Notes: generated by a model from the sequence alone, not told the origin. A stretch of 56,408 nt of DNA from Candidatus Pacearchaeota archaeon CG_4_10_14_0_2_um_filter_35_33 (GCA_002792635.1 PFOR01000013.1:1-56408); one strand, 5' to 3'. Shown: positions 24,826-44,552, numbered from the stretch's first letter. Made by a program: numbers and translations.

Positions 24826-24856
24826 AACAATCTCTATAAATTGATGTTTTTAAAAC

Positions 24857-26181: not shown

Positions 26182-27141
26182 TTATTTCCTCCTTCCCTTA
26201 AATGCTTTAGAAATTGATTTTCCCTTACCACTTGAAGGTTTCTTTCCTTTCTTGGGCTTCTCCCTCTTCACGACTTTTGACTTTGGCTTCTTAGATTTTT
26301 TAATTTTCATTACAGGTTTTTTCTTTCCTGTTTTTTTAACACCCTTCTTTCCCTTCTTAGGCTCTTTCCTTCCCGTCTTCTTTCCTGTTTTTTTAGAGGA
26401 CCCCTCCATCTCTCTTTCCCTTTTCTTTCTTCTAGCAGCCCTTTCTGCTTTCTTTTTCTTTTCCTCTCGCTTTAGCTTCCTCATGACTGCAGCATCTTCT
26501 TTCTTAACCATCTTATCAAATTCCTCATTAGCAATATCTAAATCTTTCTTTAACTTGTCTATTTCTTGTCTAATTTGACCTAAAACTTCTTCATTGTCCT
26601 TAAGATGCAAAACATCTCCGCATTCAGGACATGCAAAATAATTATGTAATGCATCTTCCTCTGAAAACTCGACATCACAATTAGGACAATGATAAAATCT
26701 CGCCTCTTTTCTAATTTCAAAAGCCCTTTCCAGCTCTTTTATTCTCTTCTCTAACAATGTTTTCAAATTCTCTAAAGACCTTGTGGTTTCAAAAGTCCAA
26801 AAATAAGTGTACCATCCCCCATTTTTCTTATCCTTTTTTCTAACAAAACTAACCAATCCTTCATCCGAAAGCTTATACAACAAGTTCCTAGTTTGGTTTA
26901 TAGTAATCTTTAACTTCTCAGCTATAGTAAATTCATTAACATTTTTCTTACCAAATAAAATATCGACAATAGTTACAGCATCCTCTCCAACACTGGACTG
27001 CACAACATCTCTGACTAAATTTATCTGAACAGAATCTGGACTTTTCTTACTCGTCTTAGTTCCATTATCAATCCTCTTGTTCTTCTTCACGACTTTTGAC
27101 CTTGATTTTTTAACTTTTTTTATAGATTTCCTAGGGGGCAT
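26182..27141 (-). CDS. tfe: Transcription factor E alpha (TFE) with Lys-rich N- and C-terminal extensions
   Basis: Winged helix FTIAEKLKITINQTRNLLYKLSDEGLVSF..GWYTYFW. Zinc ribbon CPNC-x17-CPEC. About 90-aa KKxGKK tail. Confidence 0.8.
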   Translation of the reverse strand: MPPRKSIKKVKKSRSKVVKKNKRIDNGTKTSKKSPDSVQINLVRDVVQSSVGEDAVTIVDILFGKKNVNEFTIAEKLKITINQTRNLLYKLSDEGLVSFVRKKDKKNGGWYTYFWTFETTRSLENLKTLLEKRIKELERAFEIRKEARFYHCPNCDVEFSEEDALHNYFACPECGDVLHLKDNEEVLGQIRQEIDKLKKDLDIANEEFDKMVKKEDAAVMRKLKREEKKKKAERAARRKKREREMEGSSKKTGKKTGRKEPKKGKKGVKKTGKKKPVMKIKKSKKPKSKVVKREKPKKGKKPSSGKGKSISKAFKGRRK

Positions 27142-27254
27142 AACTACCTATTAAAAACACCAAATAAAAACCTTTCGCCTGTCAGCTTTAGACATATCTT
27201 TCGCAACATATATAAACCAAATTAACCAAATGAGAGTATACTAAAGAGGGAAAA

Positions 27255-27806
27255 ATGTTATTCAAGAAAAAAGAGGACAATGCTGGAAAATTACCTGACT
27301 TGCCTCCTGCACCCAACTCCAGAATCAACATGCCTCCAATAAGACCACTCAATGAAAAAAGAGAGGCCATGCCAGAGGTTCCTCCTGTAAAACCCTATCC
27401 TGCACAAAAAATAAAAGAAGGGTTTCAACCATCTATTAAACCAAATCTTCCTCCCTTGCCTGAGTTTAAAGATGACAGGCCAATATCAGAAGTAGGAAAG
27501 ATACCTAATTTCCCTGAAAAACCAGAGCCTGAGGTTATACCTGCCCAAGTTTCTTTACCTTCCTCATATGAACAGGAACCGAAGACAAAAGGACCCATTT
27601 TCATAAAACTAGAAAAATTCAAATCGGCTAAAAATTCAATAGATAAAATACAAGAGAAGCTAGAAGAAATCGATGAACTCCTAAAGAAAACCAGAGAAAT
27701 AAGAACAAAAGAAGAACAAGAGTTATCGTACTGGGAAAAAGAAGTACAAGACTTAAAGCTTAGATTGGAAAGAGTAAACAACAGCATATTTGAAAAAGTA
27801 GAATGA
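27255..27806 (+). CDS. Pro-rich / coiled-coil protein, unknown function
   Basis: N-terminal LPDLPPAPN..PPLPEF repeats, C-terminal heptad-like KIQEKLEEIDELLKKTREIRTKEEQEL. Confidence 0.45.
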   Translation: MLFKKKEDNAGKLPDLPPAPNSRINMPPIRPLNEKREAMPEVPPVKPYPAQKIKEGFQPSIKPNLPPLPEFKDDRPISEVGKIPNFPEKPEPEVIPAQVSLPSSYEQEPKTKGPIFIKLEKFKSAKNSIDKIQEKLEEIDELLKKTREIRTKEEQELSYWEKEVQDLKLRLERVNNSIFEKVE

Positions 27807-28129
27807 CATCTGAATACGTAAAACTAAATCGTTCTGAAAAGATAATGGGGCAAAAAGACCTTTTAAACTGTGAAGTGCTTCTCCTAGATTCTATTAAAAG
27901 GATGCAAAACTATAAGGAACTTCGAAAAGAAGAGTTGGCTGCTAAAATTGTGCTCAAGAAAAAAGCAAATGAGGCCGTAGACGAAATAAAGGTATTAGAA
28001 AAAGTGCTACCAAAGACAAAAGATACAAAAGATGAAGAAGAGCCAAAAAAGAAAACGTCAACAGAGAGGCGCCAAGATTTAGAATTAGAAATCGATGAAA
28101 TAATGCGAAAAATCGAAACTCTAAAGTAA
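27803..28129 (+). CDS. Coiled-coil protein, unknown function
   Basis: ATGA overlap with the previous gene; heptad-rich sequence. Confidence 0.45.
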   Translation: MTSEYVKLNRSEKIMGQKDLLNCEVLLLDSIKRMQNYKELRKEELAAKIVLKKKANEAVDEIKVLEKVLPKTKDTKDEEEPKKKTSTERRQDLELEIDEIMRKIETLK

Positions 28130-28163
28130 ACAAATTTAAAACCTCTAAATATCTAGGATATTA

Positions 28164-29933
28164 ATGGAAAGAAAAGAATTAATCAAGAAATATCTGGATT
28201 TTTTCAAATCAAAAAAGCACAAGGAAATTCCAAATGCTTCATTAATCCCGGTAAATGATCCTACTGTATTATTCACAACAGCTGGAATGCACCCTCTTGT
28301 TCCTTACCTAACGGGAAACAAACACCCATTAGGAAAAAGACTTGTTAATGTTCAAAGATGCATCAGAACAGGAGATATAGATGAAGTCGGAGACCCAGTA
28401 CACCATACTTTTTTTGAGATGCTCGGAAACTGGTCTTTGGGAGATTACTGGAAAGATGAGGCAATAAAATACACTTTCGAATTCCTAACTAAAATTCTTA
28501 AAATGCCAAAGGAAAAACTAGCAGTCTCTTGTTTTAAAGGAGATAAAACTGCTCCAAAAGACGAAGAATCTGCAAAGATATGGGCATCTCTCGGAATAGC
28601 AGAATCCCGAATCGCATTTCTTGGAAAAGAAGACAATTGGTGGGGCCCAGCAGGAAAAACAGGCCCATGCGGTCCAGATACAGAAGTTTACTATTGGACA
28701 GCTTCAGGACCAGCTCCAAAATCATTTAATCCTGAAAACAAAAATTGGATGGAAATAGGTAACGATGTATTAATGCAATACAACAAAGCTTCAGAAACCG
28801 AATATTTAGAGTTAGAACAAAAAAATGTCGATTTCGGAGGCGGTTTAGAAAGAACACTTGCCATACTCAACAAATTAGATGATAATTATCTTTCCCCCAT
28901 ATTTTATCCAATAATAAAAGAAATTGAAAGACATTCCTCAAAGAAATACGACAACACACTCTATACTGCCTCGATGAGAATTATTGCAGATCACATCAAA
29001 GCAGCAGTTATGATTCTTGCTTCTGGATTCATCAAGCCCAATAATGTAGAACAAGGATACGTCTTGAGAAGATTAATTAGAAGAGCAATAAGTCATGGGA
29101 AAAAACTTGGAATCGAAGAAAACTTTACAGCCAAACTGGTTCCAACAATCCTTTCAATCTATCCTGATTACCCTGAATTAAATAAAAATAAAAATTTTAT
29201 TATAACCCAATTAGATGAAGAAGAAAATAAGTTCCGTAAAACATTAGAAAGGGCATTACGTGAATATAAAAAATTTGCAAAAAATAAAAAGATATCTGGA
29301 AAAGAAGGCTTCCTCTTATTCCAAAGTTATGGGCTCCCAATAGAAATGACAGAAGAACTGGCTAAAAACGACAAGGTGACATACGATGCTAGCACATCTT
29401 ACGCATTATTAACCAAACATCAAGCACTATCAAGAACACAGTCTGCAGGAACTTTTAAATCCGGCTTAGCAGACCACTCAGAACAAACAACCAAATTACA
29501 CACAGCCACTCATTTATTAAACGCAGCACTTAGAAGAGTCCTCGGTCCTGAAGTAAAACAACGCGGCTCTAACATAACTCCTGAAAGATTAAGGTTTGAT
29601 TTCAATTTCCCAAGAAAAATGACAGAAGATGAAATAAAAAAAGTTGAAAATCTCGTCAATAAAAAAATATCTCAATCTCTAACAGTCAAAAGAGAAGAAA
29701 TGACTCTAAAAAAGGCCCTAAAAGAAAAAGCTCAGGCAGAATTCGGAGCCAAATATCCGAACAAGGTATCTGTTTACACTATTTTGGATAAAACTGAAAA
29801 ATCTGGCTTTTTCTCTAAAGAAATTTGCACTGGTCCTCATGTATCAAACACAAAAGAAATCGGAACATTTAAAATACTCAAAGAACAATCATCATCAGCA
29901 GGTATAAGGAGGATAAAGGCGGTTATAAAATGA
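28164..29933 (+). CDS. alaS: Alanyl-tRNA synthetase, short bacterial-type (no C-Ala domain)
   Basis: DPTVLFTTAGMHPLVPYL, QRCIRTGDIDEVGD..HHTFFEMLGNWSLGDYWK, editing HTATHLLNAAL and CTGPHV. Confidence 0.9.
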   Translation: MERKELIKKYLDFFKSKKHKEIPNASLIPVNDPTVLFTTAGMHPLVPYLTGNKHPLGKRLVNVQRCIRTGDIDEVGDPVHHTFFEMLGNWSLGDYWKDEAIKYTFEFLTKILKMPKEKLAVSCFKGDKTAPKDEESAKIWASLGIAESRIAFLGKEDNWWGPAGKTGPCGPDTEVYYWTASGPAPKSFNPENKNWMEIGNDVLMQYNKASETEYLELEQKNVDFGGGLERTLAILNKLDDNYLSPIFYPIIKEIERHSSKKYDNTLYTASMRIIADHIKAAVMILASGFIKPNNVEQGYVLRRLIRRAISHGKKLGIEENFTAKLVPTILSIYPDYPELNKNKNFIITQLDEEENKFRKTLERALREYKKFAKNKKISGKEGFLLFQSYGLPIEMTEELAKNDKVTYDASTSYALLTKHQALSRTQSAGTFKSGLADHSEQTTKLHTATHLLNAALRRVLGPEVKQRGSNITPERLRFDFNFPRKMTEDEIKKVENLVNKKISQSLTVKREEMTLKKALKEKAQAEFGAKYPNKVSVYTILDKTEKSGFFSKEICTGPHVSNTKEIGTFKILKEQSSSAGIRRIKAVIK

Positions 29934-30067
29934 GCGAAGATTCATGTATTTTTCCAAAGTGTCCAAAATGCAACGAAGGATATCTATTACCCTTTTCATT
30001 CAAAGAAGATGTCTTTGAAAAATGGATGTGCACTAAATGTGAACACTTGATTAGAAAACCTAGATAA
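29930..30067 (+). CDS. 45-aa zinc-ribbon protein (below the ORF-track cutoff)
   Basis: ATGA overlap with the alaS stop. MSEDSCIFPKCPKCNEGYLLPF..WMCTKCEHLIRKPR carries CPKC and CTKC pairs. Confidence 0.5.
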   Translation: MSEDSCIFPKCPKCNEGYLLPFSFKEDVFEKWMCTKCEHLIRKPR

Positions 30068-30070
30068 ATT

Positions 30071-30850
30071 CTAACTTACACTAATATACAACCCGAGAGC
30101 AATAGCGAGAAGCATACAATACAGGCCAAACCATGCTAAATTCTTTCGGGAAACAAGAAGATAATTGAAGATTAAGTGGATACTAAGAATCCCAACAACA
30201 AAACTAACAACTGTAGCCCAAATCAACTCAGGAGGGATTGAACTATTTCCAATAGTCAAAACATTAGCGCCGAAAACAACTGGAATTGAAAGTAAAAACG
30301 CAAATTTCATAGCAGCCTTTTCATCTAAACCCATCATAATACCACCTGAAATTGTAGACCCTGATCTAGAAATTCCTGGAATTATTGCCATTGCCTGAGC
30401 AACACCTATAAAAAAAGCACCTTTCCAGCCCAATTTTTCTATTTTAACATTTCCAGGAACACTAGCAATAAATAAAAACAATCCGGAAAGACCAAACCCT
30501 AAAGCCAGCAAACCCAGATTAGTCAAAACCGCATCAAAATAATCTCGAGCGAAATAACCTACAAAAAAAACAGGAATAGAAGCAACAATCAATAACAAAC
30601 CCAATCGCCCATTTTCGCTCTTAAATTTGCCCTTTAACAAATCCTCTATTATATCAACAATATCTTTCCCAAAATAAACAAAAACAGCCATTAATGTTCC
30701 AAAATGCAAGGCAACATCGAAAGTCAAACCCCCATCATATCCCAGAATAGCCTCAAATAAGACCAAATGCCCTGAACTTGAGACTGGCACCCACTCAGTA
30801 ATCCCTTGTATAACGGCTAAAATCACAGCCGAGATTATTTCATTCATCAA
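30071..30850 (-). CDS. uppP: Undecaprenyl-diphosphatase (UppP/BacA)
   Basis: QGITEWVPVSSSGHLVL, IIPGISRSGSTISGG; about 8 TM helices. Confidence 0.9.
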   Translation of the reverse strand: MMNEIISAVILAVIQGITEWVPVSSSGHLVLFEAILGYDGGLTFDVALHFGTLMAVFVYFGKDIVDIIEDLLKGKFKSENGRLGLLLIVASIPVFFVGYFARDYFDAVLTNLGLLALGFGLSGLFLFIASVPGNVKIEKLGWKGAFFIGVAQAMAIIPGISRSGSTISGGIMMGLDEKAAMKFAFLLSIPVVFGANVLTIGNSSIPPELIWATVVSFVVGILSIHLIFNYLLVSRKNLAWFGLYCMLLAIALGLYISVS

Positions 30851-30887
30851 ATCCGCAGTTAAAAGTCATTAATAAATTATATTATAC

Positions 30888-31109
30888 TCAATCCATATTC
30901 TCCCACATTAATTCCAATTCTTCCTCCTCTTCCCCACTAATATTCTCAGTCTTCCCAGTCATCTTAGAAAACAAAGAAATAACCCGACATTTCCAGCAGA
31001 GCGGTTCTGCCAATCCATCCTCGCTCCAGTCAAACCCTGCCAGGTCATACTTCAAATCAAACAATCTTTTACATTTCAAACACCGTTCCGGTACAAGCAA
31101 ACTTTCCAT
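30888..31109 (-). CDS. Small zinc-ribbon protein with acidic tail
   Basis: CLKC..(29)..CWKC cysteine pairs. Confidence 0.45.
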   Translation of the reverse strand: MESLLVPERCLKCKRLFDLKYDLAGFDWSEDGLAEPLCWKCRVISLFSKMTGKTENISGEEEEELELMWENMD

Positions 31110-31227
31110 ACTATATAATGTGGTTTCTAATATATATACAAATAACTGCCTCTAAAACATCTTTCTTGGAACAATTCACCTTAAATAGAATAGCATTTTA
31201 CAATAACAAAGCAGATGATGTCGCAGA

Positions 31228-32460
31228 TTAGGTTGTTTTAGCCATTTTTATCTCTCCTGTCGCTTTCGGTTGTTTAATTGAGTTTAACAGTATAGTTTCC
31301 CATCTGTTTCCATTAACTCCTATCCCACATCTTTCAGCGGGTGTCATTTTATCCTTAACTCCTTTTCTTACGAAGTTATGGAATACTTTAAAGCCATCAG
31401 CGTAAGTTTGAGTTTCATTAATACCTCTCCTTATTTTCTCAAATTCTTTCTGATGAGTGTGGTGGTTTTCTATTGCGTTATTGTTAATTTGTTTTCTTCT
31501 GCCTAAAATTGAAGTATGCTTTACTTTTCTCTCATTACCCCAATTCCTAAATGTCTTTCTTATTCCATCTTGATATGATGGAAGTTTATCAGTTATGATT
31601 TGATAAGGTATTTTTCCATTTTGCCTATATGCTTCTGTCATAACTTTTTGAGCATCTTTCTTGCTTCTTGTATGTCCAGACACTTCCGAAGCTAAAAGGA
31701 ATTGTGTGCCTTTGTCCATTACATTCCATTTATATTCGTAATCTGCTCCTACTTTTCTATTTCCTTTTTTTGTTCTTACCATAGTTTCATCAGCGTGCCA
31801 GATATTAGTTACATTCTTTGGTTGGATTGTCTTGCTGTATTTTTCCATAACTTTAACAAATCTTAAAACCCATCTCCTTATTGTTTCATGGTGTAAATCC
31901 AAACCATAAAATTGCTTAAATTGGTCTGCTATATCTCTATAAGATAATCCTTTGTAATAACAATCCATAGCTAAACAAACAAGTTTAGCATTTCCTTTTA
32001 TGTTTTTAATTGGGCTTAAAACGAATTTCTTTTGGCAATCTTTACAATTAAATCTCTGCTTTTCTCCAATTTGGGTTTTTCTTGTTCCAAACTTAATTAT
32101 ATTTTTAGAAGAACAATAAGGGCAACAATCATTAAGAGGTTTTTCTATTATTAGCTCTATTTCTGGCTTAATCTTTTCCTCAACTTCGTAAGAAGTTTTT
32201 AGTTTCTCAAAAAGAAGTATGGCTTTAATATGTTTGCAGTATAATCCTTTTCCTTTACATCTTCTTTCAAAATCTTGACATTCACAAGAATAAGCGTCTA
32301 TGTGAGTAACCTTATATTTTTTTGAGCTATCAAACTGCGAAGGCACTAAATAAGTAAATTCATCTAAAAGCTGTGGCTCTCCTTTTTGTAAGATAGCTTC
32401 AGCTCTCTTGCTTCTCTTGTCTGCAAATTCTCTTATTTGGTTTTGGTCTGTTTGTATCAT
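31228..32460 (-). CDS. DDE transposase (IS6/IS240-like catalytic region) with N-terminal SWIM finger and IS1/IS1595-like zinc ribbon
   Basis: SWIM YSCECQDFERRCKGKGLYCKHIKAI. CPYC..RFNCKDC ribbon. WHADETMV.., ITDKLPSYQDGI, NNNAIENHHTHQKEFEKIRRG. Confidence 0.8.
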   Translation of the reverse strand: MIQTDQNQIREFADKRSKRAEAILQKGEPQLLDEFTYLVPSQFDSSKKYKVTHIDAYSCECQDFERRCKGKGLYCKHIKAILLFEKLKTSYEVEEKIKPEIELIIEKPLNDCCPYCSSKNIIKFGTRKTQIGEKQRFNCKDCQKKFVLSPIKNIKGNAKLVCLAMDCYYKGLSYRDIADQFKQFYGLDLHHETIRRWVLRFVKVMEKYSKTIQPKNVTNIWHADETMVRTKKGNRKVGADYEYKWNVMDKGTQFLLASEVSGHTRSKKDAQKVMTEAYRQNGKIPYQIITDKLPSYQDGIRKTFRNWGNERKVKHTSILGRRKQINNNAIENHHTHQKEFEKIRRGINETQTYADGFKVFHNFVRKGVKDKMTPAERCGIGVNGNRWETILLNSIKQPKATGEIKMAKTT

Positions 32461-32563
32461 TTTATTGTATTAGTTATTTACTAATTATATTAGTATATGG
32501 TTATATATAAACCTTTCGGTTTTTTCTGGAAACCTTTAAATATATGGATACCTATGGATACCC
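32461..32563. promoter_or_regulatory. Divergent promoter region inside the transposon, with tandem tatggatacc x2
   Basis: Minus-strand aaaggtttatatata (32502..32519). Plus-strand ggaaacctttaaatatat (32528..32545). 10-nt direct repeat 32543..32562 abuts ATG 32564. Confidence 0.45.
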
Positions 32564-32752
32564 ATGATAAATGTAAATACGACGACAGCAAAAAAACTTA
32601 TCTTAGAAAGTGGATATGAAAAGATTTATACCGACGAGGTTAAAACAAATGGTGGTAATTCTGGGAAGATTGGATGTAAAAAAGAGTTTATCGGCAGAGA
32701 AGTTGTTATTTTTGTTCTAAAAGAAAGAGGAGATAAAAAAGATGGAAAGTGA
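32564..32752 (+). CDS. Small AbrB/SpoVT-like protein resembling DUF2080 (archaeal transposon-encoded protein)
   Basis: GYEKIYTDEVKTNGGNSGKIGCKKEFIGREVVIFV matches the remembered DUF2080 pattern (..GNSG.v.lPk.w.Gk.V.v). Confidence 0.45.
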   Translation: MINVNTTTAKKLILESGYEKIYTDEVKTNGGNSGKIGCKKEFIGREVVIFVLKERGDKKDGK

Positions 32753-32957
32753 ATTAAGATTAGCCATAAAATTATTTGAAGAAAAAGTTAATAATACCGA
32801 AGAAGAATATAAAAAAAGATGTAATGGAAATTTTGATAAGGAAAAGATGAGGCGATATGTTAATAGGAAACTCAAAAAAGAGATTATGATACTTAATTAT
32901 GTTAATCTTTTTCCTTCTGCTCGTGCTATAACTTTAACCAAAAAGTTTAAATACTAA
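32742..32957 (+). CDS. Hypothetical basic coiled-coil protein
   Basis: ORF overlapping the previous gene by 11 nt. Confidence 0.35.
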   Translation: MESELRLAIKLFEEKVNNTEEEYKKRCNGNFDKEKMRRYVNRKLKKEIMILNYVNLFPSARAITLTKKFKY

Positions 32958-32969
32958 TTATCTTTCCTA

Positions 32970-33230
32970 TTGACTAATATGGTTAATCCAATTCCAAAAT
33001 GGGTGTGGAAGCGTTACGCTTTGCTATGGAAAAAGTTTGGTGATAAAAACTTTACTTTTGAACAGGCGAAGAAAGAATTAAAATTTGTAGATGGAAATGT
33101 AGTAAGCGTTATGTTTAATGAATTAAAAAATGCGGGATGGATTGCTGTTAATCTTGACGAGAAAGATAGCAGGAAAAGAGTTTATAATTTATTAAATCCT
33201 ATAACTATCGTGGAGAGTGTTACCAAATGA
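32970..33230 (+). CDS. Small winged-helix DNA-binding protein (possible controller of the R-M genes)
   Basis: FTFEQAKKELKFVDGNVVSVMFNELKNAGWIAVNLDEKDSRKRVYNLLNP. ATG at 32979 is the more likely start. Confidence 0.5.
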   Translation: MTNMVNPIPKWVWKRYALLWKKFGDKNFTFEQAKKELKFVDGNVVSVMFNELKNAGWIAVNLDEKDSRKRVYNLLNPITIVESVTK

Positions 33231-33278
33231 TTTTAAGACCAACAAAAACAGAACATGCAGACATCTGGAGTTATCTAA

Positions 33279-34985
33279 ATGGCAAAACCAAATTATACTA
33301 ATTGGAATAAAGAAGATTTGATTAAAGAAGTTGAAGCATTAAAGAAACAAAAGACTTTTGGATTGGTTTGGGAGAGAGATAAAACAAAAGAGGTTTTTGA
33401 TTATTATCTTAATTGGGATGGAACACAAAATAAAGAAACTTTTGGAGAAGAAGAGGGAAAATTTCCTGTATTGCAAGAAGTTAAAACCAAATCAATAGAC
33501 AACCAAGACCCAAAATATAATATTATGATTGAAGGAGATAACTACCATGCTCTTGCTGTTCTAAATTTCACACATAACAAAGCAATAGATGTTATCTACA
33601 TAGACCCACCTTATAACACAGGTGCGAGAAATTGGAAATATAATAATGATTATGTTGATAAAGAAGACGCTTACAGACATAGCAAATGGTTAAATTTTAT
33701 GGAGAAGAGATTAAAGATTGCTAAAAATCTCTTAAAAAAAGATGGTGTATTAATCTGTGCTATTGATGAGAATGAGTTATGGAGATTAGGTTGTTTGCTT
33801 GAAGAAGTTTTTTTTGATTATGAAACTCATTTAGTAACAATAGTCCATAACCCCAAAGGAGTTCAAGGTAAAAATTTTTCATATACTAATGAATTTGCTT
33901 TTTTTGTTGTTCCCAGAGGACAGAAAGTTATAGGTAATAGAAAGTTAAGAGAAGATGAGATATATTGGAGTAATTTGAGAAATTGGGGTGGCGAATCACT
34001 AAGGACAGACGCAAGAAATTGTTTTTATCCTATAATTGTTAAGGGAGATAAAATTGTTGGATTTGGTGATGTTCCTAAGAATGATTTTCATCCAAAAGCA
34101 CAAACAGAGAAAAAGGGAGATTTATATCACATCTATCCTATAGACATACAAGGAGTAGAGAGAAAATGGAGATATGCTCGTCAGAGTGTAGAATCTATAA
34201 AAGATTTCTTAAAAGTTAGAAAATCTAAAGATAGAATAGAAATTGAGATAGGAAAAGATTTTGGAACTGTTAGAACTGTCTGGCAAGATGCCAAATATGA
34301 CGCTTCCGAATATGGCACTAAATTAGTAAATGCTTTAGTTCCTAATGGAAATTTTGATTTTCCAAAATCTGTTTATGCTGTTTTTGATTGCATTTATCCA
34401 ATAATCTCGGAAAGAAAAAATGCAGTTGTTCTTGATTATTTTGCTGGGTCAGGAACAACAGGACACGCCACTATGATGTTAAACAAACAAGATGGTGGAA
34501 ATAGAAAGTTTATACTTTGCACTAATAACGAAAACAAAATATCGGAAGAGGTTTGCTATCCAAGAATAAAAGCCGTAATAAAAGGAAATGAAAAATACCA
34601 AGACATCACAGGAATAAAAGACAATTTCAAATATTTTAAAACAGATTTCGTTGATTCCGCACCAACAGACCAGAACAAAAAGAAAATAGTAGATAAATCC
34701 ACAGAAATGTTATGTATTAAGGAGAATGCCTTTAAACCAATTATTGACAAGAAGGGATATAAAGTTTTCAAAAATTCAGACATCCATTTAGGAATTATTT
34801 TTGATGATGAACAGATAGATAAATTTGTTAAAGAAGCAAAAAGCATTAAAGGAAAATTCCATGTTTATGTTTTCTCTTTTGATGACAGCGTTCCAAAAGA
34901 AGAATTTAAAATTATGGAGGGAAGAATTAAATTATGTCCTATTCCAGAGGTTATACTTCATGTTTATAGGAAAATTTTCAAATGA
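33279..34985 (+). CDS. mod: Type III R-M DNA methyltransferase (Mod), beta-class N6A/N4C
   Basis: IDVIYIDPPYNTG (motif IV) precedes VLDYFAGSGTTGHA (motif I). Size and order typical of type III Mod. Confidence 0.9.
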   Translation: MAKPNYTNWNKEDLIKEVEALKKQKTFGLVWERDKTKEVFDYYLNWDGTQNKETFGEEEGKFPVLQEVKTKSIDNQDPKYNIMIEGDNYHALAVLNFTHNKAIDVIYIDPPYNTGARNWKYNNDYVDKEDAYRHSKWLNFMEKRLKIAKNLLKKDGVLICAIDENELWRLGCLLEEVFFDYETHLVTIVHNPKGVQGKNFSYTNEFAFFVVPRGQKVIGNRKLREDEIYWSNLRNWGGESLRTDARNCFYPIIVKGDKIVGFGDVPKNDFHPKAQTEKKGDLYHIYPIDIQGVERKWRYARQSVESIKDFLKVRKSKDRIEIEIGKDFGTVRTVWQDAKYDASEYGTKLVNALVPNGNFDFPKSVYAVFDCIYPIISERKNAVVLDYFAGSGTTGHATMMLNKQDGGNRKFILCTNNENKISEEVCYPRIKAVIKGNEKYQDITGIKDNFKYFKTDFVDSAPTDQNKKKIVDKSTEMLCIKENAFKPIIDKKGYKVFKNSDIHLGIIFDDEQIDKFVKEAKSIKGKFHVYVFSFDDSVPKEEFKIMEGRIKLCPIPEVILHVYRKIFK

Positions 34986-37171
34986 TAGAATTAAAAGATT
35001 ATCAGGAAAAAGCAATAGAGAAATTAAAAGACGAAGTTAATGAGTTATTAGAATCTGATGATAGTAAAATCTGCGTCTTTAAATCTCCGACAGGTTCAGG
35101 AAAAACTTTAATGATGGCAGAAGCATTAAAGAGATTAGTAAGATTAAGAGAAGACAACAAAAAACTATCTTTTATTTGGATTTCTGTAAATAAACTCCAT
35201 GACCAAAGCAAAGATAGTTTAGACAGATATTACGAAGATATCAGAATAATAAAGTGTTCTAATTTTGAAGATTTGCAGGATAAAACAATAGATGAGAATG
35301 AGATTTTATTTTTTAATTGGCAGAGCATTAACAAGAAAGATAACATTTACATAAGAGAAAATGAACAAGATAATAACCTTTCCAATATTATAACAAATAC
35401 AAAAGATGAAGGAAGAGAAGTTATTTTAATAATTGATGAGAGCCATCATACAGCGAAAGCAGAAAAATCAAAAGAAGTTATTGAAGCAATAAATCCAAAA
35501 GTTACTATTGAAGTTTCAGCTACACCACAAATAAAAGACCTCTCCAGAATTGTTGAAGTTGATTTTAAGAAAGTTCAAGAAGAAGGCATGATTAAGAAAG
35601 AAGTTACAATAAATCCTGAAATTGATAAGATAAAAGTGGGTGGAAAAAGCACAGATGACATAGTTATTGATTCTGCATTAAAGAAAAGAAAGGAATTAAA
35701 AAAACTTTATGAGAAAGTCGGCTCAAATATTAATCCTCTTATTCTTATTCAGTTGCCAGACAGCAAAGCAGGAGTTCTTGACAGAAAAGACGAGGTTATA
35801 GAAACTCTAAAGAAAAAAGGAATAACAACAGACAATAGAAAATTAGCAATTTATCTTTCAGATAAAGATAGTAAGATTAATCTTGAGAACATAAGCAAAC
35901 CAGATAACGAAGTGGAAGTTTTATTATTCAAACAAGCGATAGCATTAGGATGGGATTGCCCAAGAGCACAGATTTTAGTTTTATTTAGAGATTGGAAAAG
36001 TATAGAGTTTTCAATTCAGACAATAGGCAGAATAATGAGGATGCCTGAATTTTATCATTATGATGAAAACGAGTTAAATAGGGGTTTTGTTTTTACGAAT
36101 TTATCAGATGTAAAAATTGCAGAGGATATAGCAAAGGACTACATTACAATTCACGAGGCAAAAAGAAGGGACGAGTATAAGGAGATTAAAATTAATTCTT
36201 CTTATTTGAAAAGACAAAGGGAGAAAACAAGATTATCTGGAGAATTTTCTAAGATATTTTTAGATGTTGCCAAAAAAGACAATTTGAAAGATAAGATAAA
36301 CAAAAATCCTTCTGATTTAGTTAATACTTTAATCATAGACGGACGAATAGTTAATTTGGATAAGATTCAAGATGTTAAATCTAAGAATCATTTAGAAGTT
36401 AAAAAGACAGCAAGGGAATTACAATACCATTTTGATTTATTTCTTCGTTCTGTCTGCACACCCTACGCTCCTGTTCGTTCAAGTGAAATAATTAGGACTT
36501 CTTTATATCGTTTTTTCGCTAAAGAAATTGTAATAGACGACTATACAGAAATTCAAAAGATTATTTTAGGAACAGAAAATAATCAGTATTTTATAGATTC
36601 TTTAAATAATGCTAAAGAAGTTTATGATAAAGAAGTTGTGCAAAAGCTAAAAGAAGAAAGAGAAAGCGAGGAGTATGTTTGGGAAGTTCCTGAATCTGTG
36701 ATGTATAACAGCAGAGCAAAAGAAGTGGATTATAAAAAATCTGTAATGAAACCTCACTTTACAAAAGCCGAAAGCACACCAGAAAAGGATTTTATCGGCT
36801 TTTTAGAAAAATCTGATAATGATGTAGTATGGTGGTATAAGAATGGAGAAGGAGAGAAAAAGTATTTTTCCGTTAAGTATAGAGATAGTAAAAAAGTTCC
36901 AAGAGGATTTTATGTTGATTTTATTGTTTTAACTAAAGATGGAAAGATAGGACTTTTTGATACAAAAGCAGGAAGAACAGCAGAAGATTCAAAACAAAAA
37001 GCCGAAGCCCTGCAAAAATACATAAAAGAACAAAATGAGAAGCATAATAAGAAGTTATGGGGTGGGATAGTCGTGCCGAAGAATGACAGCTTTAGATATA
37101 ACTCACAAGAGAAATATCAGTTTAATGAAGCAAATTTAGGAGAAGATTGGGATTTTTTGAGTTTTAGTTAA
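34982..37171 (+). CDS. res: Type III restriction enzyme Res subunit (SF2 helicase + PD-(D/E)xK-like C-terminus)
   Basis: FKSPTGSGKT, LIIDESHH, SATP, QTIGRIMR. C-terminal YVDFIVL..GLFDTKAG. 4-nt overlap with mod. Confidence 0.9.
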   Translation: MIELKDYQEKAIEKLKDEVNELLESDDSKICVFKSPTGSGKTLMMAEALKRLVRLREDNKKLSFIWISVNKLHDQSKDSLDRYYEDIRIIKCSNFEDLQDKTIDENEILFFNWQSINKKDNIYIRENEQDNNLSNIITNTKDEGREVILIIDESHHTAKAEKSKEVIEAINPKVTIEVSATPQIKDLSRIVEVDFKKVQEEGMIKKEVTINPEIDKIKVGGKSTDDIVIDSALKKRKELKKLYEKVGSNINPLILIQLPDSKAGVLDRKDEVIETLKKKGITTDNRKLAIYLSDKDSKINLENISKPDNEVEVLLFKQAIALGWDCPRAQILVLFRDWKSIEFSIQTIGRIMRMPEFYHYDENELNRGFVFTNLSDVKIAEDIAKDYITIHEAKRRDEYKEIKINSSYLKRQREKTRLSGEFSKIFLDVAKKDNLKDKINKNPSDLVNTLIIDGRIVNLDKIQDVKSKNHLEVKKTARELQYHFDLFLRSVCTPYAPVRSSEIIRTSLYRFFAKEIVIDDYTEIQKIILGTENNQYFIDSLNNAKEVYDKEVVQKLKEERESEEYVWEVPESVMYNSRAKEVDYKKSVMKPHFTKAESTPEKDFIGFLEKSDNDVVWWYKNGEGEKKYFSVKYRDSKKVPRGFYVDFIVLTKDGKIGLFDTKAGRTAEDSKQKAEALQKYIKEQNEKHNKKLWGGIVVPKNDSFRYNSQEKYQFNEANLGEDWDFLSFS

Positions 37172-37290
37172 GCTACCAACCGCTATGCGACACCTAAATC
37201 ATCAACCGAAAGTGCGACAACATCAACAAAGCATAGCTTTATAATGAGACTCACCATACTTTCAGACACAAATTAATTACTTTTCAGAGA

Positions 37291-39702
37291 TTACTCCACA
37301 AAAATCCCTGGCCTTCCGGGCTTCACCTTCTTTGATTTTCCTTGAGGGTCATACTTCTTGGAATCATTAACTGCAAACACCTTAACAGGTAATCCAACTT
37401 TCTCGCTCAAAAATCCTTCATCATAATTTTTAACTTCCTGAGGAAGAACGTAAACGTAAACTTTCTCTCCCTTGCCAATCAATTTCAAAACGTGTGCGAT
37501 ATCATTAACAGTCTTGCTTAGGGCTTCATCTGCTTTCTCAATTGAATCATTAATCTTCTTCTCATCAAACTTAGGCCAACTACTTTTAGAAACCAATCCC
37601 TTTCCGAATCTAGACCATAATTCCTCCCCGACATGCGGGCAAAATACAGAAAGCATCTTAACAAACGATTCCATATCTTTCTTCGAACATCCAGATTCAA
37701 TCACATCAAATACCTTTCTCAATTTTATAACAGCTAAATTATATTTCATATATTCAATATCTTCTGCAATTTCCTTAATCGATTTATTAACATAATGTTC
37801 AACCCTTTCATCACTCTTCTTAGCCCTCCATTTATGCTTCATAACTCTCATCAAAAATCTCAAACTTCCTTCAATTCCTTTATCACTCCAATTAAAATCT
37901 TTATCAGACGAGGCAACAGAAACCAAAAATAATCTTAACGTATCTGCCCCATACTTTTCAATTATCTTCAATGGCTCAATAACATTCCCTCTGCTTTTAC
38001 TCATTTTCTCTCCATCTTTGGCATGAACAATTCCTTGTGTGAAATACCTCCTAACAGGTTCATCTATCTGGATTAGTCCTAAATCTCTCAAGAATTTAGT
38101 ATAAAATCTGGCATATATCAAATGCATCGTTATATGCTCAGGCCCTCCAATATAAAAGTCAACAGGCATCCAGTAATTCGCCTTCTTCGAATCAAATATC
38201 CTCTTATTATTTCCAGAATCTGTATATCTTAAGAAATACCAGCTGCTATTAGCAAAAGTATCCATTGTGTCTGTTTCCCTTCTTGCTCCTCCAGAACATT
38301 TAGGACATTTCACTTTAATCCAACTCTCATTAGTCAATAAAGGATTCCCTTTTCCAAATTCGACTTTCTTTGGAAGTTTAACAGGCAAATCTTTCTCTCT
38401 TACGGTCTGTATCCCACATTTATCACAATAGATAATTGGAATCGGGGTTCCCCAATACCTCTGTCTAGAAATCAACCAATCACGAAGTCTAAATGCTTTC
38501 TTCTTCCTTCCCAAATTCTTCATCTGCAAGGCATTAGTAATATGGTTCTTCGCCTCCTCACTCTTCAATCCATCAAACCCTTCTGAATTAACCAAAACAC
38601 CATATCCACTAAACGGCAACTTATCCGCTTCAACAACTTTCTTTATCTCCAATTGATACTTCTTAGCGAAATCATAATCTCTTTCATCATGCCCTGGTAC
38701 TGCCATCACCATTCCACTTCCATAATCAGCAACAACAAAATTACCGGTCCATATCGGGATTTCTTCTCCGGTTAAAGGATGTTGAGCATAGCTTCCAGTA
38801 AACACACCTTCCTTTTCCAGCTTGTCCATGTCTTCCTGCTTAGTACTCTTAATCTTCTTCAAAAATTTCCTTACATCGGTCTCCTGTTCTTTTGTAACAA
38901 GACTCATCAACTCAGGGTGTTGGGCTGAAATCACCAGGAAGGTTACACCAAATAAAGTATCAACTCTTGTTGTAAACACCTTCCATAAATTTCCATTAAC
39001 ATCAAAATCAACTTCCGTACCCTCACTTCTACCAATCCAATTTCTCTGAAGTTTCTTGGCCCTCTCACTCCAATCCAATTTATCCAAGCCATCGACTAAC
39101 TCATCGGCATAATCAGTTATCTTCAAAAACCATTGTTCCAATTGCTTCACTTCAACTTCTTGCTCCTCATGCCTCCAACACCTGCCATTAACAACCTGCT
39201 CATTCGCCAGAACTGTCTGACATTTTCCACACCAATTCACTCCTGATTTCTTTCTATATGCTAATCCTCGTTCAAACATCTTCAAAAAAATCCATTGATC
39301 CCACTTATAGAAATCAGAGTCATCTGTTCTTACAATTCTACTCCAATCATAACTCCACCCCATCGCTTTCTGCTGTTTCATAAAATTAGCAGTCGTCCTC
39401 TTGTTGTAATCCATAGGGTGCTCTTTATATTTTATTGCCGCATTTTCTGCTGGAAGACCAAGAGCATCATATCCCATAGGATAAAGAACATTAAACCCTT
39501 GTAATCTCTTAAACCTGGCATAAATATCGCCAAGAGTAAAGACAAACGCGTGTCCTATGTGCAACCCCTCTCCGGATGGATATGGAAACATATCCAACAC
39601 ATAATACTTCTCCTTTTGATTCCTAGTAACTGCAAACGCCTTCTCCTTCTCCCAGCGCTTCTGCCACTTTCTTTCTATCTTTCCAAAATCTATCATCTTC
39701 AT
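37291..39702 (-). CDS. leuS: Leucyl-tRNA synthetase, bacterial-type
   Basis: MFPYPSGEGLHIGH, PMGYDALGLPAENAAIK, VNWCGKCQTVLANEQV, QRNWIGRSEG, KMSKSRGN. Start set at MKMIDFGK; the track ORF extends to 39780. Confidence 0.95.
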   Translation of the reverse strand: MKMIDFGKIERKWQKRWEKEKAFAVTRNQKEKYYVLDMFPYPSGEGLHIGHAFVFTLGDIYARFKRLQGFNVLYPMGYDALGLPAENAAIKYKEHPMDYNKRTTANFMKQQKAMGWSYDWSRIVRTDDSDFYKWDQWIFLKMFERGLAYRKKSGVNWCGKCQTVLANEQVVNGRCWRHEEQEVEVKQLEQWFLKITDYADELVDGLDKLDWSERAKKLQRNWIGRSEGTEVDFDVNGNLWKVFTTRVDTLFGVTFLVISAQHPELMSLVTKEQETDVRKFLKKIKSTKQEDMDKLEKEGVFTGSYAQHPLTGEEIPIWTGNFVVADYGSGMVMAVPGHDERDYDFAKKYQLEIKKVVEADKLPFSGYGVLVNSEGFDGLKSEEAKNHITNALQMKNLGRKKKAFRLRDWLISRQRYWGTPIPIIYCDKCGIQTVREKDLPVKLPKKVEFGKGNPLLTNESWIKVKCPKCSGGARRETDTMDTFANSSWYFLRYTDSGNNKRIFDSKKANYWMPVDFYIGGPEHITMHLIYARFYTKFLRDLGLIQIDEPVRRYFTQGIVHAKDGEKMSKSRGNVIEPLKIIEKYGADTLRLFLVSVASSDKDFNWSDKGIEGSLRFLMRVMKHKWRAKKSDERVEHYVNKSIKEIAEDIEYMKYNLAVIKLRKVFDVIESGCSKKDMESFVKMLSVFCPHVGEELWSRFGKGLVSKSSWPKFDEKKINDSIEKADEALSKTVNDIAHVLKLIGKGEKVYVYVLPQEVKNYDEGFLSEKVGLPVKVFAVNDSKKYDPQGKSKKVKPGRPGIFVE

Positions 39703-39720
39703 ACCCTTCTCAACTCTCAC

Positions 39721-39750
39721 CCAATTATAAATTTTCCCATAATTTAAATA
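39721..39750. promoter_or_regulatory. Back-to-back TATA boxes for divergent leuS and endA
   Basis: Minus-strand aaaatttataatt about 25 nt from 39702. Plus-strand aatttaaata about 26 nt from ATG 39772. Confidence 0.4.
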
Positions 39751-39771
39751 TCCTTCATCCTTAAACAAAGT

Positions 39772-40284
39772 ATGATACAAGCCAAGTTATCCAGAGACAA
39801 ATTATATTCAAATAGTACTTTCGCATTTTCCTTATTTGAAAAATCAAGGTTCGGAGAAAAGAAACCAAACAAGATAGAATACTCTGGATATGAAGCCCTC
39901 TTCCTATTACAACAAAAAAAACTAAAAATATTTCAAAATAAAAAACAATTAACAGAAGACCAACTCCTATCAAGATTAAAAAGAAAGGACAAAAATTTTG
40001 AAACTAAATCTCTCGTTTTCAATTATCTAAGAAAAAAGGGATATATAGTTAAAACAGCCCTAAAATTTGGGGCGGACTTTCGCGTCTATCAGAAAGGTAT
40101 CAAACCTGGCCAGGACCATGCCCTATGGTTAGTCCATTGTGTTCGAGAATCGGAAAAAATCAGCTGGTACGAATTTTCAGCCAAAAACAGAGTAGCTCAT
40201 TCATCTAGAAAAACCCTTTTACTAGCTATTGTAGATGATGAATCTGGAATCATATTCTACGAAATTGCCTGGAAGAAGCCTTAG
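39772..40284 (+). CDS. endA: tRNA-splicing endonuclease
   Basis: GYIVKTALKFGADFRVYQKG, HALWLVHCV, RVAHSSRKTLLLAIVDD. Confidence 0.85.
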   Translation: MIQAKLSRDKLYSNSTFAFSLFEKSRFGEKKPNKIEYSGYEALFLLQQKKLKIFQNKKQLTEDQLLSRLKRKDKNFETKSLVFNYLRKKGYIVKTALKFGADFRVYQKGIKPGQDHALWLVHCVRESEKISWYEFSAKNRVAHSSRKTLLLAIVDDESGIIFYEIAWKKP

Positions 40285-40323
40285 ACATAACAATATTTAT
40301 ATTCTCAAGCTCTAACTATTTCC

Positions 40324-41229
40324 ATGCCTGATGTACAAAAAGTGGTGGAAACAAAAGATAAAATAATGTCAACCATAAAAGAAAAAGGTCCGACATACCC
40401 TGCAAGAATTGCTAGAGACGCTGGCCTTTCTCCCTTATTCACTTCAGCATTTCTATCAGAATTAGTGAAAGAAAGAAAACTAAAACTATCGAACATGAAA
40501 GTTGGATCTAGCCCAATTTATTACATAGAAGGTCAAGAAGAACAACTAGCAGACTTCGCAGAATACCTTAATCATAAAGAAAGAGAAGCATTTGAAACAT
40601 TAAAAAAACAAGAAATTCTAAAGGATGATGACCAACAACCAGCAATCCGTGTTGCCCTAAGAAAGCTAAAAGACTTCGCAATTCCTGTTCAAGTAAGAAT
40701 TGACGGAGAATCCCAATTATTCTGGCGCTACTTTCAATTTCCGGACTCTCAAACTAGGGGGAAAATCAGGGATTTGCTAAGCCCTTCACAAACACCCCAA
40801 GAACCAAAACCACAAAAGCCAATAACCAAAGAAAAACCAAAAACGGAAAACGCCGAAGAAAAACCAACACAAACCCAAGAAACCATAATTAAACCCCGAA
40901 AACCAAAACAAACAACATCAGAATTCGCAGAATCCATTAAAGATTATCTAGCAGCCAAAGATGTTGAAGTCCTTGAAGAGTTATCTGTCAAGAAAAAAGA
41001 ATTCCAAGCCAAGGTAAGAACAGACACCTTATTCGGAAAACAAGAATACCTTCTAACAGCCAAAGACAAGAAAAAAATATCTCAGGATGATTTAACTATA
41101 GCAACTCAAAATGCTCAGGGAAAAAGAATGCAAGCCCTATTCCTCACACCAGGCCAATTAGACACAAAAGCCAAAGATTATTTAGAAGCCTGGCGAAACA
41201 TAATAAAATTCGAGAAAATCAAAATATAA
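40324..41229 (+). CDS. Winged-helix protein (TFE/RPC34-like N-terminus), low-complexity linker, uncharacterised C-terminal domain
   Basis: GPTYPARIARDAGLSPLFTSAFLSELVKERKLKLSNMKVGSSPIYY, then a PQEPKPQKP linker. Confidence 0.45.
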   Translation: MPDVQKVVETKDKIMSTIKEKGPTYPARIARDAGLSPLFTSAFLSELVKERKLKLSNMKVGSSPIYYIEGQEEQLADFAEYLNHKEREAFETLKKQEILKDDDQQPAIRVALRKLKDFAIPVQVRIDGESQLFWRYFQFPDSQTRGKIRDLLSPSQTPQEPKPQKPITKEKPKTENAEEKPTQTQETIIKPRKPKQTTSEFAESIKDYLAAKDVEVLEELSVKKKEFQAKVRTDTLFGKQEYLLTAKDKKKISQDDLTIATQNAQGKRMQALFLTPGQLDTKAKDYLEAWRNIIKFEKIKI

Positions 41230-41261
41230 ACCTTTAAAAACTCTCTCCCTCAACACTAATC

Positions 41262-41492
41262 ATGGGTAGAATAAAATCTGCACTAATCAAGAGAACCTCT
41301 CATCAGCTATTGAAAGAGGATAATGATTTTACAGACAGTTTTGACTATAATAAGAAATTACTTAAAGATACGATGCCTAGTAAAAAGACCAGAAATAAGA
41401 TAGCTGGGTATCTAGCAAGGCTCAAAAAAGCTGAGACTAAGAAACACGAGAAAGATGCCTCACCAACCCAACCAAAGCCCGAAGAACGATAA
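41262..41492 (+). CDS. rps17e: Ribosomal protein eS17
   Basis: MGRIKSALIKRTSHQLL..NKKLL..SKKTRNKIAGYLARL. Confidence 0.9.
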   Translation: MGRIKSALIKRTSHQLLKEDNDFTDSFDYNKKLLKDTMPSKKTRNKIAGYLARLKKAETKKHEKDASPTQPKPEER

Positions 41493-41760
41493 TTCCGTAT
41501 TTATTGGAAATAAGCCTATAATGAATTATGTAACCAGTGCTGTAATACAATTAAAAAACGGTTCCCCTGAAATCACAATCAAAGCAAGAGGAAAATTCAT
41601 CTCAAAGGCAGTCGATGTCGCGGAAATAACCAGGAAAAGATTCCTCAAGGAACTTAACTTACAAGTAAATGACATCCAGATAGACACAGAGGAATACCAA
41701 CAAAACGATAAGGAAATCAAAGTTTCTACAATAGATATTACAATTTCTAAATCTAACTAG
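41455..41760 (+). CDS. albA: Chromatin protein Alba
   Basis: NSVFIGNKPIMNYVTSAVIQL..ITIKARGKFISKAVDVAEITRKRF. 38-nt overlap with rps17e. Confidence 0.9.
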   Translation: MPHQPNQSPKNDNSVFIGNKPIMNYVTSAVIQLKNGSPEITIKARGKFISKAVDVAEITRKRFLKELNLQVNDIQIDTEEYQQNDKEIKVSTIDITISKSN

Positions 41761-41794
41761 GAACACTTAAAAACCATTTATTATTTCTACTCGA

Positions 41795-44551: not shown

Positions 44552-44552
44552 T

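Follow-up and report, generated by a model that had tools for sequence, protein, structure and literature searches.

The 56,408-nucleotide stretch of DNA analysed here (hereafter the window), from Candidatus Pacearchaeota archaeon CG_4_10_14_0_2_um_filter_35_33 (GCA_002792635.1, PFOR01000013.1:1-56408), contains a 6011-bp unit at 31214..37224 that we interpret, with a probability of about 0.9, as an autonomous, recently active unit transposon carrying a type III restriction-modification (R-M) system, and as a member of a family of elements that lie close to TATA-like motifs in the genomes of DPANN archaea. A broader interpretation, advanced tentatively and at rather less than even odds, is that this is the first recognised archaeal family of autonomous, passenger-carrying DDE unit transposons, with R-M or other defence genes as the main cargo moved among DPANN genomes, and also that its members choose their targets by reading core promoters, with insertion at precisely 13 nt on the upstream side of the TATA box and the sensing of the complex of TBP and TFB with DNA as a possible means.

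The boundaries of the unit were established by reading of the sequence and by repeat search. At the left junction, aacaaagca|GATGATGTCGCA (31205..31225), and at the right junction, TGCGACAACATC|aacaaagca (37213..37233), the whole unit is bracketed by a perfect 9-bp target-site duplication, AACAAAGCA, the two copies of which occupy 31205..31213 and 37225..37233. Inside these lie imperfect terminal inverted repeats of 22 nt, 82% complementary, at 31214..31235 on the transposase side (GATGATGTCGCAGATTAGGTTG) and at 37203..37224 on the cargo side. Both the inverted repeats and the perfect duplication had been proposed in an earlier inspection made without database searches (the sequence-only reading); they are confirmed here, with the repeat now extended to 22 nt. 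The G+C content of the element, at 0.28-0.32, may be compared to 0.34-0.38 in its flanks.

Two bipartite sites are present at each end. On the transposase side the outer site, TGTCGCA-GATTA-GGTTG, falls within the terminal repeat at 31214..31235, which also contains the stop codon of the transposase gene, and the inner site, TGTCGCT-TTC-GGTTG (31257..31272, reading CTGTCGCTTTCGGTTG), is located in the 3' coding part of the same gene. On the cargo side the reverse complements read TGTCGCA-TAGC-GGTTG for the inner site (37177..37192) and TGTCGCA-CTTTC-GGTTG for the outer one (within 37203..37224). Of the two parts of the site, the second (box B) is GGTTG all four times, and the first (box A) reads TGTCGCA except at the inner site on the transposase side, where it is TGTCGCT. 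Across the 56-kb window the pattern CAACC-N4-5-TGCGACA occurs with 0 mismatches only at 31219-31235 (-), 37177-37192 (+) and 37203-37219 (+), the site at 31257-31272 showing a single deviation from it. The sequence-only reading had placed the left-hand sites accurately and the right-hand ones 1-2 nt away from their actual positions.

The transposase gene and the passengers thus lie within one and the same pair of inverted repeats, the arrangement characteristic of a unit transposon. Motif and repeat searches found neither another inverted-repeat partner near the 5' end of the transposase gene nor any end-like sequence between that gene and mod, the first gene of the R-M operon; lacking an internal partner near its 5' end, the transposase gene is therefore not a separate short insertion sequence (IS). 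It is the only transposase gene in the element, and tblastn located no second copy inside or adjoining it. A composite transposon, or a pseudo-compound transposon of IS6 type, was consequently rejected, there being one transposase gene and no flanking IS copies; an IS-flanked composite had already been discounted in the sequence-only reading.

The locus is also found without the element. A look-up using the flanking gene for a 73-aa protein recovered the empty-site allele, ...cattttacaataacaaagcatagctttataatg..., in three independent assemblies (L003, L004 and L005), in each of which leuS directly adjoins the 73-aa gene. These contigs correspond to the window minus 31214-37224 and minus one 9-mer, both alignments sharing the single 9-mer copy. 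The spacer between the 73-aa gene and leuS is in consequence just the plain one that had been expected on paper from removal of the element with one copy of the duplication. Over the flanks, 22888-31213 and 37225-45129 of the window, the empty-site sequence differs at only 3 of 16,231 nt (99.98% identity), so that the insertion must be very recent. The filled allele, for its part, was seen in independent assemblies from ENA, JGI and NCBI, including GCA_001872325.1 and GCA_002790905.1. The insertion is a very recent polymorphism inside one population of Pacearchaeota, the host being a groundwater archaeon of the Crystal Geyser series and so a member of DPANN, as its sequence alone had suggested.

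The transposase (31228..32460, minus strand; 410 aa) is encoded by an intact open reading frame (ORF). It matches the Pfam families DDE_Tnp_IS240 (1.3e-12; 48, against a threshold of 27) and SWIM (7.7e-5), and comprises a SWIM zinc finger at residues 56-83, a zinc ribbon of the IS1/IS1595 type at 113-148 and an IS6-like helix-turn-helix (HTH) and DDE region at 157-365. The first two of these are carried by approximately 155 extra residues at the N-terminus. The NCBIfam model for IS6 (NF033587) aligns over positions 7-202 of its 202, with a score of 105.1 bits that lies below the cut-off of 125. Matches to models for IS256 and ISH6 were weak and sub-threshold, and a PDB sequence search with the transposase gave no match. 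In an alignment of 20 family members Asp224, Asp291, Glu331 and Lys338 are invariant; from their motif context, and from the seven-residue spacing between Glu and Lys described for IS6, they are taken to be the catalytic D-D-E-K residues.

The cargo of the window's element is predicted to be a complete type III R-M operon in which mod lies directly upstream of res, the two genes overlapping by 4 nt. Mod (33279..34985, plus strand; 568 aa) matches the methyltransferase models MTase_III of PADLOC (1.7e-78) and N6_N4_Mtase of Pfam (1.7e-22), as well as the PDB sequences of Mbo45V (1.1e-41) and EcoP15I Mod (6.9e-19). Res (34982..37171, plus strand; 729 aa), the restriction subunit, matches REase_III of PADLOC (3.6e-20) and ResIII of Pfam (1.8e-25). 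It contains a superfamily 2 (SF2) helicase domain and, towards the C-terminus, a PD-(D/E)xK-like motif, VDF...FDTK, which aligns with PDF...IEPK in the 24%-identical Res of another element.

Homologues of the transposase are numerous, with at least 418 clusters at 90% identity, typically 65-83% identical and of around 410 aa; those with a named source are almost all labelled as Pacearchaeota or Nanoarchaeota. A script was run on loci taken from species-representative genomes (60) and from metagenomes (80); it sought an end at a short fixed distance past the transposase stop codon, an inverted partner upstream and identical flanking 8-10-mers. In this way 43 non-redundant relatives were resolved (21 from genomes and 22 from metagenomes), each having a perfect 9-bp duplication. 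At nearly every locus only one solution emerged from the 18 offsets and three duplication lengths tried, a result that serves as an internal control of the boundary calls. The element almost always ends 14 nt past the transposase stop codon, with distances of 11, 8 or 7 nt seen occasionally. Lengths range from 2348 to 7084 bp and no bare IS was found among the resolved members, all of which carry passengers. With that of the window, these elements bring the family to 44 or more transposons of this kind, distributed among Pacearchaeota, Woesearchaeota and Nanoarchaeota. More distant relatives fit duplications of 8 bp, namely L070 and L071 (40-44% identity) and an element with a HinP1I gene in L087 (24%).

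The sequence-only reading described a single element, which proves to be one of a large family in which most members have R-M genes. The same population contains a second, different member, the 3475-bp element at positions 3923-7397 of L087, beside radB. Its genes encode R.HinP1I, an N6/N4 methylase, MazE and a 319-aa IS6-like transposase that is without a SWIM finger and only 24% identical to that of the window; its inverted repeat is TGAGCTGTTAAGTTAGCGG and its duplication TTAAATAG (8 bp, 9 bp being ambiguous). An apparent relic of the family occurs in the window itself, at 47450-47560 on the minus strand, where 33 aa with 64% identity to the zinc ribbon of the family transposase can be read from a stretch that is broken by stop codons and contains no intact ORF. 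Probably an older family element decayed here and left this fragment.

The bipartite sites recur throughout. When both ends were aligned, four copies of the form TGT(T/C)xxx-N3-5-box B were present in each of 24 out of 24 elements of the first set. Measured from the cargo end they lie at about +6 and +33, and from the transposase end at about +6 and +45. The classes of box B are GGGAG, GTGGC, GGTTG and GGGAC; 16 of the 24 elements have one and the same box B in all four copies, and the class is common to the nearest transposase neighbours in 18 of 22 cases. The four sites change in concert with the transposase, as would be expected of transposase-binding sites, and it is as such that we would interpret them. 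The termini in the window, which might have turned out to be incompatible with the true ends of the transposase family, align with those ends and have the same bipartite motif; the suggestion, made from one element, that the two sites per end bind transposase accords well with their fixed positions and co-variation in all 24.

Cargo ORFs were classified using Pfam and PADLOC, by similarity transfer in the case of the second set. Restriction or DNA-methylase domains are present in 34 of the 44 elements, that of the window included. Type III mod and res genes are found in the window's element, in L041, L051 and L054 and, in degraded form, in L170. Type II pairs with an annotated restriction enzyme are seen in L032 (ApaLI-like enzyme and N6/N4 methylase), L043 (AlwI-like enzyme and Dam-like methylase) and L035 (HNH nuclease and Dam-like methylase, together with EVE). 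Elsewhere a methylase is accompanied by an unannotated ORF: a C5 methylase with a conserved ORF of around 255 aa in L040, L146 and L152, and an N6/N4 methylase with a 263-aa ORF in L037 or a 408-aa ORF in L100. Eight elements (L052, L056, L060, L122, L126, L134, L135 and L137) have a GmrSD/HNH nuclease and an EcoRI-like methylase, some of them with Fic, RelA/SpoT or AAA ATPase in addition, and L053 has the GmrSD/HNH nuclease without the methylase. The combination of a GmrSD-N/HNH nuclease with an EcoRI-like adenine methylase is an unusual one, the nuclease family being usually classed as modification-dependent. Methylases of type IIG or type I-like character, with or without an S subunit, occur in L031, L045, L050, L058, L081, L101, L108, L111, L138, L160 and L172, and L078, also counted among the 34, contains a methylase fragment only. 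The remaining 10 elements contain AAA ATPase, DUF488 with ORFs having S-adenosylmethionine-dependent methyltransferase domains, a recurrent unknown module (see below) or small unknown ORFs.

Comparison of cargo and transposase shows that the former turns over faster than the transposition backbone. L054 and L058, with 97% identity between their transposases, have different R-M systems. Conversely, Res of the window is 91-93% identical to that of L041 and L051, the transposases of which are 66-69% identical to the window's and the ends of which belong to another box-B class. Res being so similar across such divergent backbones, R-M cassettes evidently move between transposon backbones. Mod of L051 is 58% identical to Mod of the window, with a divergent middle part, and probably has a different specificity.

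Further copies of the ends, a search for which had been recommended in the sequence-only reading, do exist: an identical element occurs at two other left-hand junctions, bringing the number seen to three. At the second site (L009 and L096) a 100% identical element lies beside radB and the gene for a 68-aa protein, and in L009 the cargo is contiguous with the transposase gene, again at 100% identity, through mod and half of res to the end of the contig. A third, different left flank is present in L010 and L013, and cargo is attached in L009 and L010. The right junctions or empty alleles of the second and third sites were sought by three routes: the Res look-up gave leuS junctions only, the RadB look-up found the second site normally filled by the different family element of L087, and MazE look-ups for the right junctions re-found only this resident element. 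An exact search for the right-end 22-mer in a collection of metagenome contigs, evidently one without the samples behind the JGI contigs that carry the 22-mer, gave 0 matches. A search of viral contigs gave 2 matches only, so viruses as the main vehicle are not supported.

Two of the contigs have unusual structures. L010 combines the new left flank with the old leuS flank on the right, and the element copy in L010 and L020 differs from that of the window, in the part equivalent to 33254-34937, by 43 single-nucleotide polymorphisms (SNPs), all of them in mod, arranged in three blocks and mostly synonymous, with six amino-acid changes. This mosaic resembles the result of gene conversion with a related mod. 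In L002, the 73-aa gene and the duplication are retained, but of the element itself no more than about 280 bp from the left end follow (approximately 7627-7900 of the contig, equivalent to 31214 to about 31492 of the window). This fragment runs into the interior of the R.HinP1I gene of the second family element, with an imperfect microhomology of short length at the point of fusion. Either the two loci have been linked by rearrangement or the L002 assembly is chimeric. IS6 elements are known for replicative intramolecular transposition (PMC7986276), and such a process could account for L010 and L002, as equally could homologous or illegitimate recombination or assembly paths.

When flanks of family elements were aligned on the element end a TATA-box-like motif, a feature absent from the sequence-only reading, was apparent on one or both sides. 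In the first set TTTA[AT]A begins 12-15 nt past the element end in 20 of 44 flanks, compared to 0.4 expected from the surrounding DNA (P ~8e-30), and is at the exact modal offset in 15 of the 44, with almost none elsewhere within 55 nt. The target hypothesis formed on these data was then tested on 22 new elements. TTTA[AT]A was again present, in 17 of 43 flanks (P ~3e-24) and at one per element in 17 of the 22, with 12 flanks having the exact modal offset. Across both sets, insertions are concentrated at a constant spacing from TATA-like motifs. The window's own motif, TTTATAA (37238..37244), lies on the cargo side and starts 13 nt past the element end. The motif is usually followed by an outward-reading ORF, and the distance from TATA to ATG has its mode at 29 nt. 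This is the spacing expected for the core promoters of leaderless archaeal genes. Since the 9-bp duplication and a further 4 nt keep 13 nt of upstream sequence, the place of the B recognition element, attached to the promoter, the latter should remain intact. At the radB locus the element of the window (in L009 and L096) abuts the very nucleotide at which the L087 element ends, beside one TATA-like motif, as would be expected if both elements measure from it.

These observations may be assembled into a mechanism. The IS6-related DDE transposase, with its added N-terminal SWIM finger and zinc ribbon, would bind the four bipartite sites, two per end, and would then attach the entire 6-kb unit by its 3' ends to target DNA cut with a 9-bp stagger, such a cut yielding the duplication of AACAAAGCA. 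Ends and transposase co-evolve, and the cargo between them, for the most part R-M or other DNA-modification and defence genes, is swapped quickly. Members of the family insert 13 nt from a TATA-like motif, which in many cases is the core promoter of an outward-reading leaderless gene, and genes and promoters should thereby be left intact. By analogy, the chemistry would be IS6-like, that is, replicative and proceeding by way of cointegrates resolved by host recombination. The R-M system is presumed to be active and to stabilise the element through post-segregational killing, the element in turn providing it with mobility.

Several points weigh against parts of this picture. Every right-hand junction retrieved, in any contig, is with leuS, against three left-hand junctions, so that no second complete insertion with a duplication of its own was seen for the window's element, and L010 could be a rearrangement, a product of replicative transposition or an assembly path through a repeat. 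No outward ORF lies within 120 nt of the motif at 37238-37244, and whether this motif acts as a promoter is consequently doubtful. Chemistry of the IS6 kind is extrapolated, since the transposase falls below the NCBIfam cut-off for IS6 and the duplication is 9 bp rather than 8 bp. Res is short, at 729 aa; the type III models match only its helicase part, no model matched its nuclease domain, and it was without any PDB sequence match. Lastly, around 60% of the family loci examined were left unresolved, reflecting short contigs, decayed copies and the insistence on a perfect duplication.

How far alternative explanations can accommodate the data was considered at each level, beginning with the integrity of the unit. 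A short IS, composed of the transposase gene alone or with the adjoining DUF2080 gene, might by chance lie beside a separately acquired R-M island, the far repeat and 9-mer being coincidental or a solo relic. Typical IS6-family elements are indeed single-gene ISs of 0.7-0.9 kb that almost never have passengers, and many of the family transposase genes are on contigs of 1.3-1.9 kb. Nevertheless, the empty site lacks transposase and R-M genes together while keeping exactly one 9-mer, no end-like sequence separates the transposase gene from mod, the ends of 43 relatives enclose cargo within a perfect 9-bp duplication, and in L009 cargo and transposase gene are together at another junction. An independent IS beside an island was rejected on the strength of the empty site, the absence of an internal end and the 43 relatives, and we regard it as extremely improbable. 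An equally remote prospect is movement of a genomic island by homologous recombination or by site-specific recombination with the 9-bp repeats as att cores. Islands mobilised by integrases are likewise flanked by short direct repeats, and R-M units integrated by integrases are known, but no integrase or recombinase gene is present among the ORFs of the element, its ends are inverted repeats, and their tips align with the ends of the transposase family. The 9-mers, moreover, differ at all 44 insertions, and must accordingly be target duplications with no common att site. An integrase-mobilised island was rejected for want of an integrase gene and in view of these differing 9-mers. An assembly artefact was also rejected.

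Decidedly unlikely, though of more substance, is the suggestion that the element is a true unit transposon now fixed or inactive, with its junctions and its presence or absence varying through strain recombination and assembly chimeras. Consistent with this are the solitary leuS right junction, the hybrid flanks of L010 with their mosaic mod and 43 clustered, mostly synonymous SNPs, the joining in L002 of the left 280 bp to the restriction gene of another element, and the report that a related Crystal Geyser DPANN population is shaped by homologous recombination. Yet the ORF of the transposase is undamaged, the copies found at different junctions show 100% identity, the 3 differences in 16,231 nt between empty and filled flanks imply very recent insertion, and the junction at the second site has the preferred geometry of the family beside a TATA-like motif. 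A different question is whether the clustering near TATA-like motifs betrays recognition of promoters or, as we consider possible but rather doubtful, mere survivorship in gene-dense genomes or a preference for AT-rich or bent DNA. DPANN genomes are compact and perhaps only insertions upstream of promoters persist in them; the target motif is nearly palindromic; and an outward ORF starting within 120 nt is lacking in the window and at six other flanks that have the motif. Selection alone, however, would not yield single-nucleotide precision of the kind seen in the modal offsets (15 of 44 and 12 of 43 flanks, with almost none elsewhere within 55 nt), nor is it suggested by the shared end point of two different family elements, which at radB stop on the identical nucleotide next to a single TATA-like motif. 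A recently active unit transposon that inserts at a set distance from such motifs remains our preferred reading.

Between the transposase gene and mod lie several small genes. The divergent intergenic region at 32461..32563 separates the transposase gene from the operon of small genes and cargo; with TATA-like motifs on both strands, among them aaacctttaaatata some 25 nt upstream of the ATG at 32564, it is a likely promoter region. Divergent from the adjoining transposase gene is that of a 62-aa DUF2080 protein (32564..32752, plus strand; Pfam PF09853, 7.9e-6), an ORF which also occurs in the relative L059. It is followed on the plus strand by a 71-aa ORF (32742..32957; cluster c10), with homologues in the same position in L041, L081, L100, L126, L134 and L139, and by an 86-aa ORF, or 83 aa from the ATG at 32979 (32970..33230; cluster c7), homologues of which are found in these six and in L053 and L106. 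The latter ORF has a weak match to the MsvR HTH (E = 0.003) and is possibly a winged-HTH protein. The gene list of the sequence-only reading consequently holds for the transposase, DUF2080, the 71-aa ORF and the overlapping mod and res, its small winged-HTH protein depending on this weak match; its further claim that the type III system is complete agrees with the matches of both Mod and Res to type III models.

These small genes form part of a recurrent module beside the transposase gene, consisting of a small ORF, an ORF of around 70 aa, a possible winged-HTH ORF of 83-90 aa and a 355-376-aa protein (cluster c9). It is seen with differing R-M cargo or none in the window (32742-33230) and in L041, L053, L081, L100, L106, L126, L134 and L139. 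The element of the window has the module without the 355-376-aa protein; L041 has that protein and is otherwise collinear with the window. Neither the c9 protein nor the 71-aa ORF nor several other cargo ORFs had any match in Pfam or PADLOC, one representative of c9 having been submitted to the latter.

Resemblance to the IS6/IS26 family is evident in a catalytic core homologous across the entire IS6 profile, in the Lys seven residues after the catalytic Glu, and in the possession of only one transposase gene, the stop codon of which falls within the terminal repeat. The end of IS26, GGCACTGTTGCAAA, resembles GATGATGTCGCAGA in its TGT-GCA core. Differences are nonetheless considerable. The transposase scores 105 bits against the family cut-off of 125 and has the additional SWIM finger; duplications are 9 bp in the window and in 43 relatives, compared to 8 bp in IS6; there are inverted repeats of around 22 bp and an inner site at each end, rather than repeats of around 14 bp; and all resolved elements are of 2.3-7.1 kb with passengers, whereas IS6 elements are single-gene units of 0.7-0.9 kb. 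Some long IS6 members do likewise have an N-terminal zinc finger, but a review of the family records one member with a passenger gene, cargo being otherwise moved as IS-flanked pseudo-compound transposons (PMC7986276).

The overall organisation is closer to that of bacterial unit transposons and passenger-carrying ISs (tIS) in which defence genes are transported, Tn7-like elements (Benler et al. 2021, PMC8649781) and members of the Tn3 family being examples. These also have one set of ends around the transposition gene or genes and variable passengers, and their defence-rich cargo also turns over faster than the transposition module. The machinery in the window is, however, unrelated, being a single IS6-like DDE protein in an archaeal host that generates a duplication of 9 bp rather than 5 bp. 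Pfam and NCBIfam scans detected no TnsA, TnsB or TnsC domains in the ORFs of the element. Tn3-family elements, for their part, have a TnpA of around 1000 aa, inverted repeats of around 38 bp, a 5-bp duplication and a resolvase with its res site, as against a 410-aa transposase, 22-bp repeats, a 9-bp duplication and no resolvase in the window. Bacterial transposon-like R-M units (Furuta, Abe and Kobayashi 2010, PMC2853133) share imperfect inverted repeats, a short (8-bp) duplication and a verified empty site. Those units are without a transposase, and so maybe non-autonomous, and are isolated cases, none of them archaeal, unlike the autonomous unit in the window with its large family. The R-M system itself resembles EcoP15I and EcoP1I in the order and overlap of mod and res, in the matches of Mod, and in having a Res with an SF2 helicase and a PD-(D/E)xK-like motif. 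The Res of the window is, though, about 25% shorter (729 aa) and too divergent to match the solved Res structures.

The closest precedent for targeting at a distance from promoters is provided by the bacterial elements TnGBS, ISLre2 and ISKra4 (Guerillot et al. 2014, PMC3942029), which likewise insert with nucleotide precision upstream of a core promoter element and spare genes. These employ Mutator-like bacterial transposases and insert 15-17 bp upstream of the sigma-A -35 box (PMC3942029). The present family has an IS6-like archaeal transposase and lies 13 nt from a TATA-like motif in either orientation, so the resemblance is functional only.

A 2019 survey of archaeal mobile elements reported passenger-carrying DNA transposons as undetected in archaea (PMC6563490), and Tn7-like elements in archaea were reported only in 2025. 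A paper on a DPANN genome from Crystal Geyser (Forterrea, PMC5905446) describes many transposons and mentions neither R-M cargo nor the family discussed here. In the literature searched, of which coverage was partial and did not extend to a comparison with ISfinder, no earlier description was found of the family or of R-M-carrying transposons in DPANN archaea. Within those limits this bears out the view in the sequence-only reading that the arrangement was undescribed, and the family is probably undescribed so far.

Cargo-carrying DNA transposons are hereby added to the archaea, and the IS6 lineage, known in bacteria for the spread of antibiotic resistance as IS-flanked units, is extended into unit-transposon form. 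The four or more box-B classes of co-varying end sites constitute a natural series for studying the recognition of ends by transposase. Precise insertion beside TATA-like motifs, if borne out, could provide a small insertion tool, consisting of one protein, for which the landing position can be predicted, and the reading of core promoters, if true, would be a prokaryotic counterpart of the promoter-tethered integration of the eukaryotic Ty3 and Tf1 elements. For the DPANN archaea themselves, with their tiny genomes and dependence on hosts, self-mobile transposons carrying R-M systems represent a concrete route to the gain and exchange of defence genes, and the family explains how such systems become strain-variable within the population of a single aquifer.

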